Shown here: piece after piece, positions 2,906 through 25,261 of the stretch
Layout of the letters: every line of letters starts with the position of its first letter
Position numbering within the stretch: the first letter of the stretch is position 1
NCBI GenBank assembly: GCA_030649895.1
Contig: JAUSEX010000052.1
Span: 16,988 to 80,987 of the forward strand
Source of the DNA: Candidatus Omnitrophota bacterium
GTDB taxonomy: Bacteria; Omnitrophota; Gorgyraeia; Gorgyraeales; Gorgyraeaceae
Length of the DNA stretch: 64,000 nt
Direction: 5' to 3'
Program-made: the position numbers and the translations under genes
The notes under the pieces: model-generated
Seen by the model: only the letters and a program-made list of their open reading frames with translations
Databases searched by the model: none
What the model was told of the DNA's origin: nothing

Positions 2906-3160
2906 CTAGGCTTCTATAGCGCACCCAGATAAAGCAATGTGCATTTTTTGCACATTGCTTTTTTCTCCTAACTCTTTTGAGTTAAATATGTTACTAATAT
3001 GTCGCGTTATTACACTTCTATCTATTTGAAATAGTTTCGCTATTTTAGCTTGAGTAAGCCAAACCGTATCCTGCTCAAGCTTAATTTCTAATAAAACTTT
3101 ATTGTGCTTATCACTATAGATAACTATTTCTCCCTTAAAAAACTTATCTTGATCTACCAT
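2906..3160 (-). pseudogene. RhuM-family (Fic/DOC-associated virulence protein) N-terminal fragment, 84 aa, truncated.
   Basis: EIKLEQDTVWLTQAKIAKLFQIDRSVITRHISNIFNSKELGEKSNVQKMHIA matches the conserved N-terminus of RhuM proteins (TVWLTQ..MAELFQ....NISLHIKNIF..EL.E.SV.K). Full-length family members are about 330 aa. Confidence 0.55.
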
Positions 3161-3182
3161 ATTTGACTCCTCCTTTGTATAA

Positions 3183-3220
3183 TAGACACATCTGGAGGCT
3201 GTTTTCTTTCAAATATTTTC
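3183..3220 (-). promoter_or_regulatory. Conserved ~40-nt upstream motif, copy b, followed (minus strand) by TATTATAC, an AGGAGG RBS and the ATG of the RhuM fragment.
   Basis: Plus strand TAGACACATCTGGAGGCTGTTTTCTTTCAAATATTTTC. Confidence 0.6.
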
Positions 3221-6544: not shown

Positions 6545-7313
6545 TAAATTTTTCCGGCACTGTTATTAAATAGGTCTTATTTAATTTGCCTTTATTCACA
6601 ATAAGCCTTTTCCCATTACCTAAATTAACGGCATCCTTGTCTATTGTCTCCAGCCAGGGATGCTTATAGTATTCTGCCAAAAATAAAAACAATCTCTTGA
6701 CTGCGACATGCCTACAAGCGCGCAGTAATTCATTAACTACATTCGGACGTAATGTGGTTAACCCTTCCATAAGCTCTGCGGCAAAGGTAAATGAAAATTC
6801 ATCTTTAACAAATACCAACGCTTCCATTATTGCCATTTCAGGCGATGAAATCTTTAATGGCCAGTCCTTTATAGGACTTTTTATTTCCATAAATCCCACG
6901 TTTTTGGGCACGCCTCTAAATAACTGTTTATGCACAACTCGTAAAGATACATTAAGAGTGACATTCCTAACCCACGAAGGGATTTTTGACAATCCCACAA
7001 GATATATCTGATTTTCTCCCGCTAATCTTAAATAATGAGAAAACCCCTGTAAATTAAGCGCTGTTTCTCCGCTAACATGATAAGCTACCCCCTCTATGTG
7101 TTGCCACGAAGCAACCAAGCCCTGCCAACTCACTTCTGTTGTCGGCCTGCTATACGCTCCTTTACCTACAGATTTAAGCCATCCACCTTTAACATAATTA
7201 TGAGTACGCTGTCTGGAGTATCCTTTATCCTGTAGCCATTTGCTTGGAGCTATGGCACCTTCAGGTAAACATAGATATAATTGGTTTATTTTTTCGTTGT
7301 TTTGTATATTCAT
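6537..7313 (-). CDS. AbiEi-family antitoxin / transcriptional regulator, number 2.
   Basis: N-terminal winged helix ...KWLQDKGYSRQRTHNYVKGGWLKSVGKGAYS (AbiEi_4 pattern L...G.L....RG.Y). Paired immediately upstream of AbiEii. Leaderless-like TATACT 7 nt before the ATG. Confidence 0.75.
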   Translation of the reverse strand: MNIQNNEKINQLYLCLPEGAIAPSKWLQDKGYSRQRTHNYVKGGWLKSVGKGAYSRPTTEVSWQGLVASWQHIEGVAYHVSGETALNLQGFSHYLRLAGENQIYLVGLSKIPSWVRNVTLNVSLRVVHKQLFRGVPKNVGFMEIKSPIKDWPLKISSPEMAIMEALVFVKDEFSFTFAAELMEGLTTLRPNVVNELLRACRHVAVKRLFLFLAEYYKHPWLETIDKDAVNLGNGKRLIVNKGKLNKTYLITVPEKFNV

Positions 7314-7432
7314 ACTTTACAGTATATCATATTTCTAAACTAAAAACAAGCTTATGGTTTAAATTTTATTATTCTTGTATATTGTGGGTTTACTTTTTAA
7401 TATTATTCTAAACATCGTCTCTGTATCTGCCA

Positions 7433-7557
7433 TATCTGTAATATACATCTTACCATCCGTAGCCAGCATTTTTAAACCGTTACATTTTGTAACGGTTTCA
7501 CTACCCTTTCGCTACTATATAAGACACATCTCAAAGGTGTTTTCTTTCAAAAATTTT
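7433..7557. repeat. Composite repeat unit, copy 1: 25-bp perfect palindrome AAACCGTTACATTTTGTAACGGTTT (7474-7498) followed by the conserved 40-nt motif (7518-7557).
   Basis: Near-identical to the unit at 15623-15748. The palindrome also occurs at 11284-11308 with compensatory changes (GTGAC...GTCAC). Confidence 0.8.
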
Positions 7558-7987
7558 AAAATATTTCATTCCTTAAAATCCCGACTACATACCCCACATT
7601 CCTTAATGGATTATCAGTGCGCATTTTGGAGACTTTTTCAACGGCTTTGCGCACATCATTTTCATTGTATTCTTTCATAATCCTTATGAAATTCTCAACC
7701 ACTTTTGGGCTATAGCCTTTATCTATCATGAAGCTAAGCTCTCTGGCCTTCGCGACTTCGTCCTTTCCATAACGCGCCTCTAATCCAAGCCATTTTTTCT
7801 CCATATCTTTTTCTGAATAAAGTATACCCAGAAGATACTCGCTTGGCTCTCTATCCTCATAACCAGCGCCTTTAGCTACTCTGGCTCTTTTTATCTCCAG
7901 AACACCGTATTTTTCAAGCTCTCTCATGCTAGGGGAAATAGTAGTATGATCCACATGAAAATCCTGCGCCAGTAAATTAAGGCTCAC
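7556..7987 (-). CDS. 'Family A' winged-helix / DnaD-like domain protein, copy 1. GTG start; the N-terminus is fused to a remnant of the PLD gene's 5' region.
   Basis: MRELEKYGVLEIKRARVAKGAGYEDREPSEYLLG (wHTH-like) ... IRIMKEYNENDVRKAVEKVSKMRTDNPLRNVGYVVGILRNE (DnaD-domain-like C-terminus). The open frame extends upstream into 7988-8100 without an ATG. Confidence 0.6.
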   Translation of the reverse strand: MSLNLLAQDFHVDHTTISPSMRELEKYGVLEIKRARVAKGAGYEDREPSEYLLGILYSEKDMEKKWLGLEARYGKDEVAKARELSFMIDKGYSPKVVENFIRIMKEYNENDVRKAVEKVSKMRTDNPLRNVGYVVGILRNEIF

Positions 7988-8160
7988 AGACCACCACGGG
8001 CTATCTTTACTAAGAGATTCTTTATAGACATTGATAAAATACGCGAACTTAGCGCTTTGGCTTAGTTTCCTTGACCAGTCATATTCCCAGTAGGCAAAAT
8101 GGAAGGATAAAAAGAAATTTTAGTGAAGAGTGTTTTCAACCTATAAACATCCTATGCTTA
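7988..8160. repeat. Recombination scar. The 5' leader/signal-peptide region of the PLD gene (AATGGAAGGATAAAAAGAAATTTTAGTGAAGAG...) is fused directly to the family A gene. The PLD body has been deleted in this copy.
   Basis: Sequence 8095-8160 matches 12640-12700/12770-12830 and 16670-16740, which flank PLD genes at the other two module copies. Confidence 0.6.
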
Positions 8161-8163
8161 TGA

Positions 8164-8925
8164 TTATCCATTGCCTATTCTTTTCAAGAGCTCATCCGAG
8201 AATTTCTGGATTTCTTCTCTGGTTACCGGCTCACGATAATACAATTCATCCATCTCGTCCCGGAATCTCTCCTGAGATATACGTAAATTTTCGACTATGC
8301 TTTTTTTGTCTAAAGGCCTGAACATTTCTTTCTTTGCCAGCAATGCCAAAGCGTCATCTATATTCAATCCCAATTTTTTCTGTAATATAACCAAATCATA
8401 CGGATCCCTGGGCCTTGCCCTATCGTTAAGCGTGCGTATTTTCTCGGCAAAAATCTCGCTTGTGTCCATAACCGGACAGGAAAGCTTAACCCCGTAATAA
8501 TTCTTGTATTCCATTACTTTTGGCTCAAGCAATACTTTTTGATTAGTGTTTATATCTACCTCGATTGTATCCGGCTGGGCTAATACACCGCGGTATTGCA
8601 CGGAAAACGCTAACCCGAATTTTTTCTCTTCTATATCCTTTAATTTAAATATTTCAAAATCTGAAAATAGACTCTCCACGTCGGATAGCTTTAATTTAGT
8701 CTTCGAAGTAAAATCCAGGTCTTTCGAGAAACGAATCTGGTCCAAATAGCAGTGATAGATGGCTGTCCCGCCTTTAAAGACAAGCGCGTCTTTTAATTCA
8801 GAACCGTAAATAATACTTAAGATTACCGCTAAGAAATAATCCTTTTCAGCATCCTGCAAATTATATTTAAGGCCGCGTTTATTTAAGACCTCTAATCGCG
8901 CCCTATCCAACAAATCTATCTTCAT
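8164..8925 (-). CDS. Nucleotidyltransferase, AbiEii toxin family, number 3.
   Basis: DALVFKGGTAIYHCYLDQIRFSKDLDFTSK motif. Overlaps the upstream AbiEi gene. Confidence 0.8.
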   Translation of the reverse strand: MKIDLLDRARLEVLNKRGLKYNLQDAEKDYFLAVILSIIYGSELKDALVFKGGTAIYHCYLDQIRFSKDLDFTSKTKLKLSDVESLFSDFEIFKLKDIEEKKFGLAFSVQYRGVLAQPDTIEVDINTNQKVLLEPKVMEYKNYYGVKLSCPVMDTSEIFAEKIRTLNDRARPRDPYDLVILQKKLGLNIDDALALLAKKEMFRPLDKKSIVENLRISQERFRDEMDELYYREPVTREEIQKFSDELLKRIGNG

Positions 8926-9676
8926 AATATAACCGCCATTTCGCGTTAAATTTCTTTGAATTAGGCGTAAGTTTACTATAACCTTTGGCTCCTACGGTCT
9001 TGCGCAATTCTTCAGTATCTATTTTTAATATATCTAAAATAAATCCTAATTTTCGTCTGGCCGCCTCAGGAAATTTCCGGGCATAGGTAAACAGCCTCCT
9101 AAAATTTATTCTGTCTTTTGCTTTTTGCAGTTTCTCCAGCAGTAAATCTATGGAATAAGTGTCATTTTTAAAATAGAGATAATCTAGAATCACTTTTTCA
9201 AGCTCCGCGACTTTTACGTAGTAGCCTTCTATGTTTTCAGTCTTAAAGCCAAAATACAGCTTTTTGTTTATCTTCAGATACCGATAGGTGTTTTTTTGAA
9301 ACACGTACTTCTTGGACTTAAGATTGGTTACCGATGATACAGTACGCAACATCTGTTCGAAAAGGCCATAATGATTTAAAGCTGAATCCAGCGAAACATA
9401 AGAATCTTTATTAAAGGCATTCGCTATAATAACAGGCGAAATATTCACAAAGCCGCGCGAGGAGATATCTGAGATAAAATAAAGCCCTCTCCTCAAAGGA
9501 ATGAGCCAGCCGTTTTTTTTGAGCTCATAGACCCGCTTCTTGAGGACAAATTTCGAGTATTTCCTGCCTAATGCCTTATGGATATCGTTGGCAGTTACGA
9601 TCTTACCCGAAGCAACAATAATATCTTCTATATCCACAAGTCGTTTTTCCGTTAAAATAGTATTCTTTGAAACCAC
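8903..9676 (-). CDS. AbiEi-family antitoxin / regulator, number 3 (GTG start).
   Basis: VYELKKNGWLIPLRRGLYFISD is an AbiEi_4 winged-helix signature. AAGGGGG RBS. sigma70-like TTGACA(9730-9735)-N17-TTTAAT(9707-9712) upstream. Confidence 0.7.
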   Translation of the reverse strand: MVSKNTILTEKRLVDIEDIIVASGKIVTANDIHKALGRKYSKFVLKKRVYELKKNGWLIPLRRGLYFISDISSRGFVNISPVIIANAFNKDSYVSLDSALNHYGLFEQMLRTVSSVTNLKSKKYVFQKNTYRYLKINKKLYFGFKTENIEGYYVKVAELEKVILDYLYFKNDTYSIDLLLEKLQKAKDRINFRRLFTYARKFPEAARRKLGFILDILKIDTEELRKTVGAKGYSKLTPNSKKFNAKWRLYYEDRFVG

Positions 9677-9706
9677 TTATACACCCCCTTTACGTATCTA
9701 TCTAGA

Positions 9707-9791
9707 ATTAAACCATACAAATATACTTTTGTCAAGTAGCTTTCTTGCATATATAAGACACATCTCAAAGGTGTTTTCTTTCAAAAATTTT
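9707..9791 (-). promoter_or_regulatory. Promoter of AbiEi#3 (TTGACA-N17-TTTAAT), with the conserved 40-nt motif (9753-9791) just upstream of the -35 element.
   Basis: Minus strand: ...TTGAAAGAAAACACCTTTGAGATGTGTCTTATATATGCAAGAAAGCTACTTGACAAAAGTATATTTGTATGGTTTAATTC... Confidence 0.6.
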
Positions 9792-9866
9792 AGTTAAATA
9801 TAACTAATTTATGTAACACCTTTATTTGTAATTAATTGCAACTACTACTTAAAAGTCAATAAGCAG

Positions 9867-10703
9867 CTAATTCAAGAGTTTTTTGCTTTGAGTCTCCTTT
9901 AGATAATTTTCATGCGTTAATACTTTTTTACCGCTCTTTCTTTCCAATTCTTTTCTCGCATTGCCTGCGACAGCGCCGCCCTCTTGGGCCGCTTGCTTAT
10001 TCTCGATAAATCCCTGAGCATTTTTATTTATGGTGATTTCTTTAGTGGATGCCTCTCCAAGCATTGAGAAGATTAATTCCAAGTCATTCATATGATCCCG
10101 CAGATTTTGCCGCTTTAACCCTTTAAACTTTTTATACGCGGATGGAGTCAGGCCAAAAATTGCTTTTGATATCTCAGCGGTTAGGATTTCATATTCTTTG
10201 GGTTTCTTTACGTCTCTTTTTTGCCACTGATCAGTTAGCTCTTCACGTATAGCTATGCCGCGTATTCTCTTTTCTATCCAATCATCACTATAGCCTTTTG
10301 CCTTATATAGTGCCCGCGTTCTCTTTGTCGCCAATTCAGGGTCTTCGATTTCCTTAATCCGCTCATAGCCGACTCTTGCCAGCCACCTCTTAAATGGTTC
10401 AGCTTTAGGCGAAGGGACAGATTGAATAATACGGAATATACCTTCGGTGTTGGCGCAATCTGTTTCATACTTTTTACCATCCAATGCTTCCAATTTCAGT
10501 CCGTGACAAAATGTCACGACCTCGCATCCTTCCGCTGTCAATCTTTGTTTGAGCTTTCTCCAATATGAACCTGCATCTAAGCTCTCGGTAAGAACACCGC
10601 ATACATCCACAACCGAAAACCACCATTCATTCTTGTGAATGGTTTTCCTGATCTCTTTTTTCCGAAAAATAGCAATTTTAGTAACAGCTGTCTCTTTTGT
10701 CAT
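9867..10703 (-). CDS. DinD-like DNA-damage-inducible protein with an N-terminal Bro-N/KilA-N-like domain, copy 1.
   Basis: The N-terminus IAIFRKKEIRKTIHKNEWWFSVVDVCGVLT resembles Bro-N. The C-terminal half (LTDQWQKRDV...YKKFKGLKRQNLRDHMNDLELIFSMLGEASTKEITINKNAQGF...GGAVAGNARKELE) aligns with E. coli DinD (KGLKKNQKILDHMGSTELAANLFRATQTEE...GRKVRQTIQELGG). Confidence 0.7.
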   Translation of the reverse strand: MTKETAVTKIAIFRKKEIRKTIHKNEWWFSVVDVCGVLTESLDAGSYWRKLKQRLTAEGCEVVTFCHGLKLEALDGKKYETDCANTEGIFRIIQSVPSPKAEPFKRWLARVGYERIKEIEDPELATKRTRALYKAKGYSDDWIEKRIRGIAIREELTDQWQKRDVKKPKEYEILTAEISKAIFGLTPSAYKKFKGLKRQNLRDHMNDLELIFSMLGEASTKEITINKNAQGFIENKQAAQEGGAVAGNARKELERKSGKKVLTHENYLKETQSKKLLN

Positions 10704-10747
10704 TTATCCCTCCAGATTTTTAATTACTATATATAAATCTACCCACT

Positions 10748-10847
10748 TCTAACTTAAAAGTCAATAGGCGCTATCCGAATGTGCCTATTGGGCATGCCTT
10801 AAAATCCCCACTAAATATTCAATATTTCTTAACAAAAGTCTCGTTCA
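10748..10847. repeat. Hairpin repeat CAATAGGCgctatccgaatgtGCCTATTG plus a 3' remnant of a family A gene (...TTAAAATCCCCACTAAATAT...).
   Basis: Same element as 5350-5410 (there carrying the nested mini-hairpin) and 25990-26035. The downstream ~40 nt match the last codons of the family A genes. Confidence 0.55.
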
Positions 10848-11485
10848 TTATCTTAGTAGTTTTTTATCATGGGGTAGCTTTATATAACTGTCTTTAGTTA
10901 TAACCTTTTTGCCTGTCTTCGACTCAATTTCTTTTCTCGCTTTCCCCGCAACATGCCCGCCCTGTCGTGCCACCTTTCGATTTTCCCTGAACGTCTTTGG
11001 TTCTTTTGCATTTGAAATTTCAGCAGTGCTGGCCTCCGCAAGCATATTCAAAACAAGCTCCAAATTCGTCATGTTATCGCGCAAATTTTCCTTTTTAAGT
11101 TCTTTAAACTTTTTATATTGCTTGGTCGTTAGGCCTGCCCAGGCAAATGTAATTTCATCAGTCAAAATAGCAAAGTCACCGGCCTCTTTAACGCCGCGCT
11201 TCTGCCATTCATCAGTTAAAGCCTTACGAAGCTCAATGCTTTTTCTGTAACACGCATCTTGCCATCCGCAGCCAGCATTTTCAAACCGTGACATTTTGTC
11301 ACGGTTTCACTGCCTTCTTTTTTAAGGCGTTCTTTTAGCTTTCTCCAATACGCAAGAGGAGATACGCTATCAGTAAGCACTGATATTATATCCGCTACTA
11401 CAAAAAACCATTTTTCTGTCTTTTCGTCCCAACTACGCCTGATTTTCTTACCTTCGAATAGAGCTATCTGAGATTTTTTCTCCAT
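10848..11485 (-). pseudogene. DinD-like gene, copy 2. It is disrupted: split into two ORFs (11216-11485 N-terminal part, 10848-11294 C-terminal part) by a repeat insertion together with a ~70-aa deletion.
   Basis: N-part MEKKSQIALFEGKKIRRSWDEKTEKWFFVVADIISVLT...TKCHGLKMLAADGK and C-part ...LTDEWQKRGVKEAGDFAILTDEI...YKKFKELKKENLRDNMTNLELVLNMLAEAST both align with DinD copies 1 and 3. The segment between them (CANTEGIFRIIQS...IEKRIRG) is missing and replaced by the palindromic element at 11250-11320. Confidence 0.7.
11250..11320. repeat. Inserted copy of the 25-bp palindrome element (AAACCGTGACATTTTGTCACGGTTT at 11284-11308) with flanking CATCTTGCCATCCGCAGCCAGCATTTTC. It disrupts DinD copy 2.
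   Basis: Matches 7440-7500 and 15640-15700, except for two compensatory substitutions that keep the palindrome perfect. Confidence 0.75.
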
Positions 11486-11596
11486 TTATCCCTCCAAATT
11501 TTCATTACAAAGATTTCTATATTAAACACTTTTATTATACCACGCTTTTCAATTCTTCTCTAAGAAACTGCATCATGCGCCACCTCCTCTCTACCC

Positions 11597-11637
11597 TATA
11601 AGACACATCTGGAGGTAGTTTTCTTTCAACTATTTTT
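11597..11637 (-). promoter_or_regulatory. Conserved 40-nt motif, copy e, upstream of the DinD#2 start.
   Basis: TATAAGACACATCTGGAGGTAGTTTTCTTTCAACTATTTTT. Confidence 0.55.
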
Positions 11638-11686
11638 ACTTTTTTGATTTTTTGTGAAAAAGGCAGGTAAAACCAGATTACAAATA

Positions 11687-12061
11687 TTAATCCCTTGCTT
11701 CTTTCCTTAAAATCCCCACTAAATATCCGATATTCCTTAAAGGATTATCCGGACGCATGGAGGAGACTTTTTTGACTGCATTAGCTACATTTTTCTCACC
11801 ATACTCTCGTATAATCCTTATAAGGTTTTCTACTGCTTTGGGATTATAGCCCCTATCTATCATGAAGCTAAACTCTCTTGCCTTGGCCGCTAAGTCTTTT
11901 CCATAACGCTCTTCCATGCCGCGCCATTTTTCCTCCATGTCTTTTTCTGAATAAAGTATACCCAAAAGATACTCGCTTGGCTCTCTATTCTCATAATCAG
12001 CGCCTTTAGCTATCCTAGTTCTTTTTATCTCCAGGACGCCGTATTTCTCAAGCTCTCTCAT
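11687..12061 (-). CDS. 'Family A' winged-helix / DnaD-like domain protein, copy 2 (124 aa).
   Basis: MRELEKYGVLEIKRTRIAKGADYENREPSEYLL...NPLRNIGYLVGILRKEARD. Paralog of 7556-7987 and 15722-16153. Confidence 0.6.
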   Translation of the reverse strand: MRELEKYGVLEIKRTRIAKGADYENREPSEYLLGILYSEKDMEEKWRGMEERYGKDLAAKAREFSFMIDRGYNPKAVENLIRIIREYGEKNVANAVKKVSSMRPDNPLRNIGYLVGILRKEARD

Positions 12062-12252: not shown

Positions 12253-12687
12253 CTATGACCAGTTAGAGCTTCCTGATATTACAATATTTTTATCAATGAC
12301 TATTAATTTATCATGAAGCCTTTTACCAGGCATAATAAATTTAACCGGCACGCCCTCTCTATAAAGCGCTAAAAAGGCAGAATCGTTCTTATCTTCATTA
12401 TAGGGTTTACTCCTATCTAAATAGACCTCTACTTTTACACCTCTAGTATGCGCGTTTACTATATCCTGAACCAGCTTATACGCTTCGCTTTCTGTCTTAT
12501 CCAACTCCATGGATATCTCATACATCGCTATATAAAGAGAGTCCTTTGATTTGGAAAGCGCTTCGTGGGCGGCCTGGAAATATTTATCATCGCTTATGTC
12601 TTTAATATCTACCTGAATCGCGAAACTTTTGATTGGAAATAATAAAAATGGAAGGATGAAAATGAAGCCCACCCAGGTTAAAGCCAT
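12253..12687 (-). pseudogene. Secreted PLD-superfamily (Nuc-like, HKD) nuclease, truncated by a nonsense codon immediately after the HKD motif.
   Basis: Signal peptide MALTWVGFIFILPFLLFPIKSFA|IQ; HKD motif HDKLIVIDKNIVISGSSNWS. The TAG directly after NWS corresponds to TAT (Tyr) in the paralog at 16150-16566, whose frame continues ...YSAFRLNSENADLII... for 60 more codons. Confidence 0.6.
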
Positions 12688-15416: not shown

Positions 15417-15622
15417 ATAAGGATCTAAGTTCTTCAAAAATTCTGCAGCCTCTCTCATGAAATCCTCTATTAAGACCTACTGTATTGCTTTCAGCAATTC
15501 CAGATCGTTTAACATCCGATTCAGGCATCTGCACAGAAAGGGTGGTGGCAATTTGCCTCCACCCTTTAGCCAACTACGAATCCCTTTCTATATTATCACT
15601 CAATTCTCTATTAACAATAGCC

Positions 15623-15748
15623 ATATCTGTAATATGCATCTTGCCATCCGCAGCCAGCATTTTCAAACCGTTACATTTTGTAACGGTTTCACTACCCTCT
15701 CGCTACTATATAAGACACATCTCAAAGGTGTTTTCTTTCAAAAATTTT
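15623..15748. repeat. Composite repeat unit, copy 2: 25-bp palindrome (15665-15689) plus the conserved 40-nt motif (15709-15748).
   Basis: About 95% identical to 7433-7557. Confidence 0.8.
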
Positions 15749-16153
15749 AAAAATAAATAAACCGCGCAGGTGATTCATTAGTCTTTTGCTTCTTTCTTCA
15801 AAATCCCCACTAAATATCCGGATATTCCTTAAAGGATTATCCGGACGCATGGAGGAGACTTTTTCAACGGCTTTGCGCACGTCATTTTCATTGTATTCTT
15901 TCATAATCCTTATGAAATTCTCAACCACCTTTGGGCTATAGCCTTTGTCTATCATAAAGCTGAATTCCCGGGCTTTGGCTACCGTGTCCTTACCGTAAAG
16001 CTTTTCCATGCCAAGCCATTTTTTCTCCATATCTTTTTCTGAATAAAGTATACCCAGAAGATACTCGCTTGGCTCTCTATTCTCATGACCAACGCCTTTG
16101 GCTATCCTAGCTCTTTTTATCTCCAGGACGCCATATTTTTCAAGCTCTCTCAT
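15722..16153 (-). CDS. 'Family A' winged-helix / DnaD-like protein, copy 3. The C-terminus is altered by a +1 frameshift (extra G in ATCCGGATATT), so it reads through into the repeat unit.
   Basis: Identical to the other copies up to RPDNPLRNI, then diverges (RIFSGDFEERSKRL...) instead of GYLVGILRKE. The DNA still encodes the ancestral ending in the -1 frame. Confidence 0.55.
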   Translation of the reverse strand: MRELEKYGVLEIKRARIAKGVGHENREPSEYLLGILYSEKDMEKKWLGMEKLYGKDTVAKAREFSFMIDKGYSPKVVENFIRIMKEYNENDVRKAVEKVSSMRPDNPLRNIRIFSGDFEERSKRLMNHLRGLFIFKIFERKHL

Positions 16154-16566
16154 GCCAGGGAAATTGGAGCCAATGATTTATCCTTTAAGAACCTGGCAGG
16201 GCATTTTATCGTTACAATCTGCGCTTCATCTATAGATCTCTTATCCACAAAAGGCCTAAGCCTTAGGATATTCTTTAATTTTTCCTTGGCATACTCTCTG
16301 GATATTATTAAATCAGCATTCTCGCTATTTAACCTGAATGCTGAATATGACCAGTTAGAGCTTCCTGATATTACAATAAATTTAACCGGCACGCCCTCTC
16401 TATAAAGCGCTAAAAAAGCTGAATCGTTCTTATCTTCATTATAGGGTTTACTCCTATCCAAATAGACCTCTATATTTACGCCTCTAGTATGCGCATCTAT
16501 TATATCCTGAACCAGCTTATACGCTTCGCTTTCAGTTTTATCCAGCTCCATAGATATCTCATACAT
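16150..16566 (-). pseudogene. PLD/Nuc-like nuclease paralog lacking the ATG and signal-peptide start region and carrying a 48-nt in-frame deletion that removes the catalytic HKD His-Lys segment.
   Basis: ...VKFIVISGSSNWSYSAFRLNSENADLIISREYAKEKL... The segment MPGKRLHDKLIVIDKN present at 12290-12337 is absent; the deletion is flanked by an ACAATA direct repeat. The upstream frame has no ATG and hits TAG. Confidence 0.6.
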
Positions 16567-16723
16567 CGCTATATAAATAGAGTCCTTTGATTTGGAAAGC
16601 GCTTCGTGGGCGGCTTGGAAATATTTGTCATCGCTTATATCTTGGATATCTACTTGGACTGCGAAACTTTTGATTGGAAATAATAAAAATGGAAGGATAA
16701 AAAAAATTTTAGGGAAAAGTATT

Positions 16724-20078: not shown

Positions 20079-20221
20079 GATAGTGTGTCCAGCTTAATTC
20101 GTGACGCAGCGCGTCACGATTCGAATACATCACATAGAAATGCCTTATATTTTAGAACCATAAGGCTCGTAACTTATTATAAGGTAAAATGTTACAGCTC
20201 AGTAAGACGTCCCCGATGCTA
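20079..20221. repeat. 143-bp repeat, copy 1 (orphan). It is a duplicated 5' region, N-terminal coding segment plus promoter-like leader, of the YhcG-like nuclease gene.
   Basis: About 93% identical to 25119-25261. Its reverse complement encodes MMYSNRDALRHELSWTHY..., the N-terminus of the gene at 24445-25173. Contains the imperfect palindrome TCGTGACGCagcGCGTCACGA. Confidence 0.75.
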
Positions 20222-21608: not shown

Positions 21609-21707
21609 GGCAAACTCTTTCTATGTATGGCTAATATACAAGCATATAGTATAACAATATTGGCTATAATACAAGGTATATTATGTGGAACCGATAGCTT
21701 CCTTTTA

Positions 21708-21750
21708 TATATAGACACATCTTAAGGGTGGTTTCTTTCAATTTTTTTTA
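21708..21750 (-). promoter_or_regulatory. Conserved 40-nt motif, copy g, about 100 nt upstream of AAA#4.
   Basis: TATATAGACACATCTTAAGGGTGGTTTCTTTCAATTTTTTTTA. Confidence 0.55.
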
Positions 21751-23416: not shown

Positions 23417-23457
23417 TATGTCGCAAAAAGTATATACTTTTTGCGACATATTGTCAA
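23417..23457 (-). promoter_or_regulatory. Promoter of AbiEi#4: TTGACA(23452-23457)-N17-TATACT(23429-23434). Spacer and -10 lie within a perfect 34-bp palindrome TATGTCGCAAAAAGTATATACTTTTTGCGACATA (23417-23450), a candidate autoregulatory operator.
   Basis: Minus strand: cTTGACAatatgtcgcaaaaagtaTATACTttttgcgacataGGAGAGGttattattATG. AbiEi antitoxins are known autorepressors that bind inverted repeats. Confidence 0.7.
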
Positions 23458-23486
23458 GATGTTTTTACGTAAATCCACCCTTAAAA

Positions 23487-23518
23487 GCAGTAGCCCAGGT
23501 TTAAACCTGGGCTACTGC
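23487..23518 (-). terminator. Rho-independent terminator hairpin immediately 3' of DinD#3 (GCAGTAGCCCAGG-tttaaa-CCTGGGCTACTGC followed by TTTTAAG on the minus strand).
   Basis: 13-bp perfect stem, 6-nt loop, U-tract. A variant with covarying stem is at 24410-24441. Confidence 0.65.
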
Positions 23519-24351
23519 TAATTCAAGAGTTTCTTGCTTTGAGCTTCTTTTAGATAATTTTCACGCGTTAATACTTTTTTACCACTCTTTCTTTCCAATT
23601 CTTTTCTCGCGTTGCCCGCGACAGCGCCGCCCTTTTGGGCTGCTTGCTTAGTCTCGATAAATCCCTGAGCATTTTTATTTATGGTGATTTCTTTAGTGGA
23701 TGCCTCTCCAAGCATTGAGAAGATCAGCTCCAAGTCATTCATATGATCCCGCAGATTTTGCCGCTTTAACCCTTTAAACTTTTTATACGCGGATGGGGTC
23801 AGGCCAAAAGTTGCTTTTGATATCTCAGCGGTGAGTATTTCGTATTCTTTGGGTTTCTTTACGTCTCTTTTTTGCCACTCGTCAGTTAGTTCTTCACGGA
23901 TAGCTATGCCGCGTAGTCTCTTTTCTATCCAGGCATCGCTATATCCTTTAGCCTTATATAAAGCTCTCGTTCTCTTTGTAGCTAGTTCAGGGTCTTCGAT
24001 TTCCTTAATCCGCTCATAGCCGATTCTTGCCAGCCACCTCTTAAATGGTTCAGCTTTAGGTGATGAGACTGACTGGATAATGCGAAAAATACCTTCTGTA
24101 TTTGCACAGTTCATCTTCTGTCTCCCACCTTCTGTGCGAATTTCAAGGGTATGTACAATTTGTACCCACCCTTTAGCCAACTCTGGATCCCTTTGTTTCA
24201 TTCTCTGGATATACTGCTTAGGATCACTGGAATCAATCAAAGCCGAGACAACGTCTTCAATAACAAACCACCACTCCTTCTTATGAATGGCTTTCCTGAT
24301 CTCTTTCTTCCGAAAAATAGCAATTTTAGTAACAACTGTCTCTTTTGTCAT
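23518..24351 (-). CDS. DinD-like / Bro-N domain protein, copy 3.
   Basis: About 85% identical to copy 1 over the N- and C-terminal parts, with a divergent middle segment (SSDPKQYIQRMKQRDPELAKGWVQIVHTLEIRTEGGRQKMN). Confidence 0.7.
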   Translation of the reverse strand: MTKETVVTKIAIFRKKEIRKAIHKKEWWFVIEDVVSALIDSSDPKQYIQRMKQRDPELAKGWVQIVHTLEIRTEGGRQKMNCANTEGIFRIIQSVSSPKAEPFKRWLARIGYERIKEIEDPELATKRTRALYKAKGYSDAWIEKRLRGIAIREELTDEWQKRDVKKPKEYEILTAEISKATFGLTPSAYKKFKGLKRQNLRDHMNDLELIFSMLGEASTKEITINKNAQGFIETKQAAQKGGAVAGNARKELERKSGKKVLTRENYLKEAQSKKLLN

Positions 24352-24444: not shown

Positions 24445-25173
24445 TTAAAATTTATACCGTTGCATTTCTTTCCGAAGCTCCTCTGGGGTAGGAAGATACA
24501 GTTTGTACCGCGAGGCGAATATCTGCTTATTGCGCTCAGGCAATGTATATCGTACTACAGCGTCTTTTTTATCCTCGCATAATAAAAGCCCTACGGTAGG
24601 ATTATCATCATGGCGCCTCAATATCCGATCATAGTAATTAACGTACATCTGCATCTGCCCTATATCCTGATGAGTAATTTTTCCTATTTTTAAATCAATA
24701 AGAACGTAACACTTCAGAATCGCATTATAGAAAACCAGATCTATGTAAAAATGATCTCCCTCTAGCGTTATGCGGTTTTGGCGCGCGACAAACGTAAATC
24801 CTCTGCCAAGTTCCAGGAGAAATTGAGACAGATGGTCAATAAGCGCCTGCTCAAGTTTATTTTCATAAAGTTTAGCCTGAGGAGATAGTCCGGTAAATTC
24901 TAGCACATATGGATCCTTTATCATATCTTCATATGTCTGAACATCCTGGCCTTTGGCGGCAAGCCGTTTCACAGCTTTCTTATCTTTGCTTAACGCAAGT
25001 CTCTCGAACAACATGCTGCCTTTCTGGCGTTCAAGCTCGCGGGATGACCAATTATTCTTCGCGCATTCTACTTCATAAAATGAACGGGCTTCCGGATTTT
25101 CTACCCGTATTAATATCCTATAGTGCGTCCAGCTTAATTCGTGACGCAGCGCGTCACGATTCGAATACATCAC
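24445..25173 (-). CDS. PDDEXK-family nuclease, YhcG/DUF1016-like, N-terminally short relative to canonical family members.
   Basis: LSWTHYRILIRVENPEARSFYEVECAKNNWSSRELERQ matches the YhcG signature (LSWSHY..L....D...R.FY......W..REL.RQ). The C-terminal region GDHFYIDLVFYNAILKCYVLIDLKIGK is consistent with a PD-(D/E)xK core. The first ~18 codons lie inside repeat 25119-25261. Confidence 0.65.
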   Translation of the reverse strand: MMYSNRDALRHELSWTHYRILIRVENPEARSFYEVECAKNNWSSRELERQKGSMLFERLALSKDKKAVKRLAAKGQDVQTYEDMIKDPYVLEFTGLSPQAKLYENKLEQALIDHLSQFLLELGRGFTFVARQNRITLEGDHFYIDLVFYNAILKCYVLIDLKIGKITHQDIGQMQMYVNYYDRILRRHDDNPTVGLLLCEDKKDAVVRYTLPERNKQIFASRYKLYLPTPEELRKEMQRYKF

Positions 25174-25261
25174 ATAGAAATATCTTATATTTTGGAACCA
25201 TAAAGCTCGTAACTTATTATATGGTAAAATGTTACAGTGCAGTAAGACGTCCCCGATGCTA
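25119..25261. repeat. 143-bp repeat, copy 2, forming the 5' end and leader of the YhcG-like gene.
   Basis: Paralogous to 20079-20221. Minus strand contains TTACTG-N18-TATAAT, a promoter-like sequence, upstream of ATGATGTAT. Confidence 0.75.

Follow-up and report, generated by a model that had tools for sequence, protein, structure and literature searches.

The stretch of DNA analysed here (the window) comprises 64,000 nucleotides of a Candidatus Omnitrophota bacterium (assembly GCA_030649895.1, contig JAUSEX010000052.1, positions 16,988 to 80,987) and contains three copies of a 25-nt inverted repeat, all of which lie in the remains of genes of the Bro-N/DinD-like family (PADLOC model PDC-S13). 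The repeat is probably a cis-acting hairpin within the coding sequence of this family, active likeliest in the mRNA, and not a mobile element. By comparison of sequences, it was shown that base pairing, and not the sequence of the arms, is conserved across about 190 homologues and also in a second family, RhuM.

A pattern search of the whole window found AAACCGTTACATTTTGTAACGGTTT at 7474-7498 and 15665-15689 and AAACCGTGACATTTTGTCACGGTTT once, at 11283-11307, with no further copies of the 25-mer elsewhere; the chance expectation for such copies was 0 in 100 shuffles. An earlier note on this DNA had correctly described the first and third copies as identical and had placed the middle one a base off, at 11284-11308. 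It had also called the repeat a perfect palindrome. The dyad is real, but the palindrome is not a strict one, as the 11-bp arms flank an asymmetric 3-nt centre (TTT on the plus strand, AAA on the gene strand). The middle copy differs from the other two by T to G in the left arm and A to C in the right arm; its 11-bp arms are still perfectly complementary, and the two substitutions are thus compensatory, as had been claimed. All genes in this part of the window are on the minus strand. Read on that strand, the first and third copies (type g, Asn variant) are AAACCGTTACA-aaa-TGTAACGGTTT and lie inside two gene fragments, relics A and D, respectively, and the second copy (type g, His variant) is AAACCGTGACA-aaa-TGTCACGGTTT and provides the codons ETVTKCHGL of a pseudogene, DinD#2. 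The predicted RNA fold has an energy of -13.1 kcal/mol for the first copy (z -4.0) and -17.4 kcal/mol for the second (z -5.4); overall, the predicted values range from -11 to -21 kcal/mol, with z from -2.1 to -5.8.

The minus strand through the repeat and the 40-nt motif beside it translates as ..EGSETVTKC[H/N]GLKMLAADGKM.. (in the middle copy, ..EGSETVTKCHGLKMLAADGKM..). The motif, which had been regarded as forming a composite unit with the palindrome, consists of the adjoining codons (KMLAADGKM..) and is present in all three copies. The host codons of the repeat, ETVTKC[H/N]GL, correspond to residues ~61-69 of Bro-N/DinD-like open reading frames (ORFs) or their relics. The reference for this reading is an intact gene of the window at 9867-10703 (minus strand), which encodes a 278-aa protein of variable-cassette type a; a metagenome-assembled genome of Candidatus Omnitrophota has a protein that matches it with 100% identity. 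In a tblastn search with this protein, all three copies align to its residues ~58-98. Its residues 17-109 match the Bro-N (PF02498) hidden Markov model with 48.3 bits (gathering cut-off 25.6), and residues 8-274 match profile positions 5-273 of 286 of the PDC-S13 model (E 1.9e-121). No mention of PDC-S13 was found in the searchable literature, and the system is a phage-defence candidate only. The intact gene has a hairpin of its own at 10497-10523 (minus strand), GAGGT CGTGACA-ttt-TGTCACG GACTG, with a 7-bp core at 10502-10518 and the codons EVVTFCHGL; this region is a 65% copy within repeat family D3, the family of the 40-nt motif.

Pairing across the Bro-N/DinD-like and RhuM families

With 1,483 clusters at 50% identity in a profile search (E<=1e-30), this is a large family, and its members contain a hypervariable cassette, at residues ~40-82, between highly conserved flanks. 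The cassette occurs in at least seven discrete types. Three sets of homologues were compared: 80 genome loci of relatives, 80 type-g metagenome loci retrieved by the patterns KMxA[APS]DGKM and AYWRKLK[EQ], which lie outside the hairpin codons, and 29 viral-contig loci with 38-65% identity. In 160 loci representing at least seven cassette types, the centre of the repeat lies 80-82 nt 5' of the IIQSIPS codons, and every type has a repeat. The viral-contig relatives have it at the same codon in 27 of 28 cases, with still other arms; it stands at the same codon in a relative of 33% identity, and three matches among cultured-phage records add one more hairpin. The arms and the encoded residues differ completely among at least 10 variants (~190 homologues, many phyla). 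Examples of arms are CGTGACA / TGTCACG; ..TCTACA / TGTAGA..; TGTCCGA-aaaaa-TCGGACA; (TTC)AGTTGTCGACA / TGTCGACAACT(GAA); AAAGGGTGGGGGCA / TGCCaCCCCCCTTT; GGGGTACA / TGTACCCC; AGTTGACTACA / TGTAGTCAACT; CAACTGTCCGAT / ATCGGACAGTTG; and TCATACCCTGACA / TGTCAGAGTATGA. Across the family, the hairpin spans 17-31 nt and the arm length varies from 7 to 14 bp. An apex CA-WWW-TG is found in most variants, and the central three bases are 95% A+T, compared with 50% in the arms. Types c and d retain the apex, CA-AAT-TG, even though repeat and reading frame are offset by 1 nt there. Paralogs of the same genome carry different arms, both in the window and in two further pairs of loci (L017/L061 and L026/L029).

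For the analysis of pairing, segments of 37 nt (114 distinct ones) were lined up at the repeat centre with no gaps. Standard pairs occupy 86.5% of cells, compared with 66.7 +/- 0.8% when the letters of the 3' side were shuffled (0/500 shuffles reached the observed value), and controls with slid partners are 26-44% paired. Changes on both sides were found in 11 of 12 pairs, with 305 doubly changed cells against 89 in the shuffled data and a covariation score of 0.561 against 0.209. At the level of codons, the two arms are mutual reverse complements: Val GTG stands opposite His CAC in 99 cases and Val GTT opposite Asn AAC, the case that the earlier note had come across, in 11, with no discordant case, and xAA/TTx (88) and xAG/CTx (22) are likewise free of discordance. 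Ser TCG/Arg CGA (12 cases) and Ser TCT/Arg AGA (5 cases) differ by a switch that is synonymous on both sides. Further compensated changes lead from Leu TTG/Gln CAA to CTG/CAG and from Thr ACC/Gly GGT to Ser AGC/Ala GCT or to Ala GCG/Arg CGT; one-sided intermediates are also present. Covariation also extends past two mismatches to an outer helix of 2 bp (GAG..CTG / GAA..TTG).

Synonymous diversity, expressed as observed over expected from the codon usage of the family, has a median of 0.90 in a set of 82 sequences and of 0.88 in an independent set of 64, with a single sharp trough exactly at the hairpin codons (0.35 and 0.18, respectively). When the same proteins were recoded synonymously, 5.3 of 10 pairs were formed, compared with 8.8 observed (median p 0.004). 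Since synonymous sites are frozen only at the hairpin and the residues of the arms co-vary as reverse-complement codons, the constraint lies on the nucleic acid and shapes the protein; selection on the protein could not account for these results. The compensated, doubly synonymous changes argue for base pairing rather than for recognition of half-sites by a dimeric protein. The earlier note had deduced from the symmetry that either structure or binding by a dimeric protein is under selection; the constraint on pairing holds in ~190 homologues and in the second family, and half-site recognition by a dimer is not supported.

The second family shows the same features. In 80 RhuM loci, retrieved by patterns far from the hairpin (QFRIWAT and ELL[DE]RIRD), a hairpin is always present 45.5 nt 5' of the YNLD codons (37-64 nt where there are insertions), with differing arms. 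It is 93.7% paired, compared with 76% in shuffled data (0/500); 11 of 12 pairs are changed on both sides, compared with 4.4 in the shuffles, and the synonymous trough reaches ~0.1 against a median of 0.77. In one locus (L129), a full-length RhuM gene with a perfect 11-bp hairpin at SVVKEYLTT lies beside a Bro-N gene. The N-terminal domains of the two families align collinearly but weakly over 89 columns in hhalign (E 0.0017, probability only 16%), and the hairpin centres, measured from the DGK motif that both share, differ in position by 3 codons. It seems likely that the two hairpins have a common origin.

Action of the hairpin and competing explanations

It is proposed that purifying selection keeps the pairing because the sequence, as a single strand, forms a hairpin whose A/T-rich apex is conserved; this hairpin would act in cis on the expression of its own gene. 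The likeliest site is the mRNA, where the hairpin may serve post-transcriptional control, through stability or translation, or protein binding, for what is potentially a harmful stand-alone defence protein; action as a DNA hairpin or cruciform would be less likely. The transcript is favoured because the sense strand folds better than the antisense strand (79 versus 22 distinct sequences) and because long-lived mismatches are G.T, that is, G.U in sense RNA. Several points weigh against this explanation. The lean toward the sense strand is weak, as the G.T mismatches outnumber the A.C ones by about 7 classes to 5, and the acting molecule may be RNA, single-stranded DNA or duplex. The apex of 3 nt is small for an RNA loop. 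The hairpin lies ~190 nt from the start codon and therefore cannot act directly on initiation. There is no conserved partner gene beside the hairpin gene among 262 gene neighbours, which fall into 206 clusters that include type I/III restriction-modification genes, Cas3/Cas5d, HEPN-NTase and HNH. The homologue counts are counts of sequences and not of independent evolutionary events. Finally, the appearance of covariation and of a synonymous trough could also be produced by quasi-palindrome templated mutation acting together with protein-level selection.

The encoded protein bears on the alternatives. In the AlphaFold model of the 9867-10703 product, the hairpin codons correspond to a low-confidence loop leading from helix 44-57 to strand 66-72, with a predicted local distance difference test score (pLDDT) below 50 at residues 62-64; the loop precedes the wing strands of the N-terminal DNA-binding domain. 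In this loop, the protein presumably tolerates the residues that the hairpin dictates. The model (m225c44f15364) matches full-length Deinococcus DdrC (8u0g, 7qvb, 7udi), the nearest experimentally solved fold, with probability 1.00 and E 3e-6 to 8e-4. The likeness, which concerns the protein and not the hairpin, extends over the whole length, comprising an N-terminal winged-helix-like domain and a C-terminal helical bundle, although the identity is only 12-14% and the template modelling (TM) score 0.3-0.49. It suggests that the Bro-N/DinD-like protein is a dimeric binder of DNA or DNA lesions.

A serious, though unlikely, rival is an element working at the level of DNA, where the repeat could be extruded as a hairpin or cruciform or could be bound as a duplex palindrome by a dimeric protein. 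The most economical candidate for the binder is the gene's own DdrC-like product, for which the site could be an intragenic autoregulatory roadblock or a type-specific self-marking site. This is consistent with the match to DdrC, a dimeric DNA-break binder (probability 1.00, E 3e-6), and with Bro-N being a DNA-binding fold. The A/T-rich centre between arms of balanced composition resembles palindromes that extrude readily or are bent by proteins, the discrete arm types coincide with a variable and probably DNA-contacting cassette, and paralogs of one genome differ in their arms. In addition, rearrangements in the window end near hairpins, as expected if a DNA hairpin forms in vivo. However, the changes from TCG/CGA to TCT/AGA and from GAG/CTG to GAA/TTG, which leave the protein unaltered, restore pairing and would not restore half-site recognition, and the arm length varies between 7 and 14 bp. 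The binding of DNA by DdrC is described as lesion-specific and not sequence-specific. The absence of a second arm copy within -450..+800 nt, in 129 loci, speaks against a promoter operator.

It is improbable that the hairpin is a functionless coding palindrome which perpetuates itself, with mismatches between the arms removed during replication by intrastrand template switching (quasi-palindrome correction), whether through reversion or through transfer of the change to the opposite arm, and with selection at the protein level in addition. Synonymous third positions of one arm always pair with first or second codon positions of the other; therefore, conversion together with purifying selection on the protein could give the synonymous trough. 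A relic at 15537-15567 is better paired (13/14) than functional type-c genes (12/14), as such a process would have it. Against this stands, first, the persistence of the repeat, which was lost in none of the ~190 Bro-N/DinD-like and 80 RhuM genes, while synonymous sites elsewhere are near saturation. Second, internal mismatches are stable across the whole of types a, c and d, although a strong perfecting drive should erase them, and the outer helix past the mismatches still co-varies (GAG..CTG / GAA..TTG). Third, the apex sequence is conserved regardless of the reading frame. Moreover, arms of 7 bp are weak substrates for template switching. In favour of the idea, the coexistence of coding palindromes with protein function is documented, in the mitochondria of Nematomorpha (PMC6649704).

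Another idea, which likewise has only a small chance of being correct, is that the hairpin is the cognate ligand of the very protein segment it encodes, the hypervariable wing/helix cassette of the N-domain of Bro-N, and of RhuM, binding the stem-loop of its own transcript or gene. If it were true, specificity and target would be the same DNA and always co-inherited, and the cassette types would be orthogonal specificities that let several paralogs coexist in a genome. The mRNA hairpin could then hold the protein inactive, like an antitoxin, until infection collapses host transcription.

A recombination site, whether a crossover point between cassette halves or an attachment site of the island, is very improbable. 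The repeat does lie in the middle of the hypervariable cassette with its conserved flanks, and in the window relics and truncations cluster near it. However, the distance matrices of 8-codon windows to its left and right correlate at 0.83-0.87 across the repeat, and this linkage breaks down at the borders of the cassette alone (codons ~30-44 and ~83-105). Where homology between loci stops, it does so at gene ends and not at the repeat, no recombinase is conserved nearby, and a 3-nt spacer is too short for the core of a tyrosine recombinase. Scarcely credible is the mobile, operator-like palindrome of the earlier note, which together with its 40-nt flank would have spread to three sites and split DinD#2 by insertion: three near-identical copies within 8 kb, one in a broken gene and two intergenic, gave it some appeal, but all three are one stretch of one gene family's coding sequence with codon-for-codon homology to intact genes in about 190 genomes, no DNA is inserted at the DinD#2 repeat, whose lesion is a deletion 41 nt away, the flank is adjoining coding sequence, the intergenic copies, being gene fragments, can still be translated into sequence of the family, and there are no copies elsewhere in the window.

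Several known classes of element were considered and rejected. A Rho-independent terminator lacks its T tract here (the tails are TTTGAAAATG or TTTCACTACC), and a terminator scan called none at any copy. For a palindromic operator, fixed half-sites recurring near promoters would be expected, and this was not borne out: the arms differ completely among variants, and no extra arm copies occur at -450..+800 nt in 129 loci. Elements resembling repetitive extragenic palindromic (REP) sequences or miniature inverted-repeat transposable elements (MITEs) do not fit either, as every copy represents the same codons in members or relics of a single gene family. Integron attC sites, taken as imperfect palindromes of 57-141 nt that stand at the 3' ends of cassettes and have both R''/L''-L'/R' boxes and extrahelical bases, differ from a hairpin of 17-31 nt with perfect short arms at a fixed codon within an ORF; the presence of an integrase was not examined. 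The 3' flank YTGAAAWT, considered as a CRISPR repeat handle, represents conserved Leu-Lys codons and is absent in types c and d. In Rfam, there was no match at gathering score in the window; the region 7200-11800 gave none with E<=1, and the hairpins of 7 loci were likewise without a match. Literature searches on a Bro-N palindrome, on DinD with Bro-N and on a RhuM hairpin found nothing relevant.

Relics and repeats in the defence island

The host of the middle copy, DinD#2, is a type-g Bro-N/DinD-like pseudogene at 10848-11485 (minus strand) with an internal deletion of ~196 nt and a frameshift. It is collinear with full-length relatives except for this out-of-frame deletion, whose junction at ~11242 lies 41 nt 3' of the repeat; no insertion is seen at the repeat itself. 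The claim that the repeat disrupts the gene thus fails, because the repeat is native coding sequence and the lesion is a separate deletion. The loss of about 70 codons that had been reported is roughly right, the number being about 65. The junction (11238-11246) is an A5 run (ACAGAAAAAGC) at which a -1 shift would rejoin both ORFs. A programmed -1 frameshift was considered there and rejected: the frame can be restored, yet ~65 codons of the conserved domain are gone. DinD#2 is treated as a pseudogene because these codons are missing even after such a shift.

Relic A is a type-g fragment at 7383-7508 (minus strand; ..KGSETVTKCNGLKMLATDGKMYITDMADTETMFRII..; 57% identity in tblastn, E 3e-8), and relic D is another at 15619-15699 (minus strand; ..EGSETVTKCNGLKMLAADGKMHITDMA..), 96% identical to relic A over 133 nt. 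Both are without a start codon and are fused to an intergenic repeat, D4 (in relic A, at the 5' side). Beside relic D, a second relic at 15537-15567 (minus strand) carries a type-c hairpin, AAAGGGTGGaGGCA-aat-TGCCaCCACCCTTT, which encodes LAKGWRQIATTL, has 13 of 14 pairs and a predicted energy of -20.7 kcal/mol, and is 95% identical to the hairpin region of locus L004. This relic hardly exceeds its palindrome, and it pairs at 13/14 compared with 12/14 in functional type-c genes. The third Bro-N/DinD-like paralog of the window, at 23521-24351 (minus strand), encodes 277 aa of variable-cassette type d, and its hairpin at 24145-24173 (minus strand) is AAGGGTGGGTACA-aat-TGTACATACCCTT (KGWVQIVHTL). 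Directly 3' of its stop codon, the palindromes TATGTCGCAAAAAGT-atat-ACTTTTTGCGACATA at 23417-23450 and AGCAGTAGCCCAGGT-ttaa-ACCTGGGCTACTGCT at 23486-23519 are found, both of them perfect, with arms of 15 bp and a loop of 4 nt. Also present is a truncated RhuM-family N-terminus, an 84-aa ORF at 2906-3160 (minus strand) with 51% identity over 72 aa to locus L209 (E 8e-23). Its hairpin, at 2931-2961 (minus strand), is AAAGCAATGTGCA-aaaaa-TGCACATTGCTTT (EKSNVQKMHIAL), with perfect 13-bp arms that are the same in L209, and the homology to full-length RhuM ends within ~3 nt of the 3' base of the hairpin.

Relics were not found as a general feature: there were none within +/-3 kb of the 80 genome loci of relatives, and two apparent minus-strand relics in loci L074 and L078 were only the palindrome read in antisense. 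Among the database relatives of the type-g N-terminus (P0121-P0240), many are ORFs of 77-141 aa, some on long contigs, in which unrelated tails start 12-35 codons after the hairpin (after DGKMRxTD, VADTE or RLIQS). The impression that relatives of this N-terminus are all short proteins was a ranking artefact, as the shorter ORFs mostly run off contigs and most complete type-g genes encode ~263-314 aa (77 metagenome loci). Truncated forms of the family gene seem to be common in metagenomes, and assembly breaks at the conserved flank may contribute to them. In loci L147-L159 (human gut metagenome, Bacteroidales-like), a type I-C-like operon contains a type-g gene flanked by cas3 and cas5d. In L084 (2670-2742) and L046 (2755-2841), the gene directly upstream of the family gene encodes a tRNA.

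The neighbourhood of the repeat in the window is a defence island, with AbiEi/AbiEii pairs, PLD/DrmC-like genes and AAA_14-DUF4143 ATPases (PDC-S01), and it looks heavily rearranged. A module of ~4.1 kb is present three times with 79-92% identity (7595-7894, 11729-12028 and 15821-16120; also 12334-12633 / 16375-16674). Its parts are a PLD/DrmC-like gene, which the copies have in split or truncated form, and a protein of 124-143 aa with a weak match to a GntR-like winged helix-turn-helix, followed by D4 and then by a Bro-N gene or relic. D4 (gene strand TAAAATTTTTGAAAGAAAACACCTTTGAGATGTGTCTTATATA) occurs in at least 7 copies in a single orientation, just after the stop codons of minus-strand genes (796-851, 3178-3219, 7516-7564, 9750-9801, 11597-11636, 15707-15749 and 21698-21741), and was not found in the ~270 other loci fetched; it could be a genome-specific terminator or promoter, or a REP-like element. 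Near-identical stretches of 61 nt at 20080-20140 and 25120-25180, 5 kb apart, each contain a hairpin, TCGTGACGC-agc-GCGTCACGA. Ends of rearrangements lie near the hairpins (~11242; 2931; 7508; 15567): the deletion in DinD#2 falls 41 nt 3' of a hairpin, the relic of RhuM stops at a hairpin base, and relics A and D start 15-20 nt 5' of theirs. This may reflect palindrome-associated instability or an ascertainment bias, the hairpin being the best-conserved DNA.

Known systems and wider meaning

The picornavirus cre/oriI is an element of an RNA-virus genome that templates VPg uridylylation. It resembles the hairpin described here in being a short stem-loop within an ORF, with a compensated stem, a conserved apex motif and synonymous suppression only at the element. 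It differs in that the genes considered here are bacterial cellular or prophage DNA genes and that the arms also dictate the encoded amino acids. The fbi and tac pairings of hok/sok and the hairpin in the leader of lactococcal abiD1 are mRNA folds that restrain toxic or abortive-infection genes. By analogy with them, the favoured mechanism, which as regards function is conjectural, would be that of a base-paired and partly coding mRNA that checks a harmful stand-alone product; those folds act at the ribosome-binding site or at mRNA ends, whereas the hairpin is ~190 nt inside the ORF. Sites inside the gene of the protein that uses them are represented by parS within spo0J/parB and by the origin hairpin within repC of the pT181 family. 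There too, a DNA-binding protein has a palindrome or hairpin within its coding sequence, and in the pT181 family the arms occur in type-specific variants. However, no replication or partition context was found here, and pairing accounts better than half-site recognition for the compensated synonymous changes. In mitochondrial genes of Nematomorpha, perfect inverted repeats overlap coding sequence and were interpreted as a compromise between protein function and a stringent structure; these repeats are lineage-specific, occur in large numbers and reach lengths of up to 284 bp (PMC6649704). The Bro-N/DinD-like genes, in contrast, have a single hairpin of 17-31 nt at one fixed codon position, conserved across phyla. 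Apparently, neither the hairpin nor its spread over the phyla has been described before, and the same applies to its occurrence in RhuM and its dictation of amino acids.

For annotation, the relics carry a warning, as "palindromic repeats" in defence islands can be remains of Bro-N/DinD-like or RhuM genes. The hairpin also offers an unusually clean bacterial case in which a nucleic-acid structure overrides protein sequence. Of the uncharacterised genes that accompany restriction-modification, CRISPR and other defence operons, those of the Bro-N/DinD-like (PDC-S13) and RhuM families are among the most frequent, and the hairpin at a fixed codon is the first conserved regulatory or mechanistic handle on both of them.

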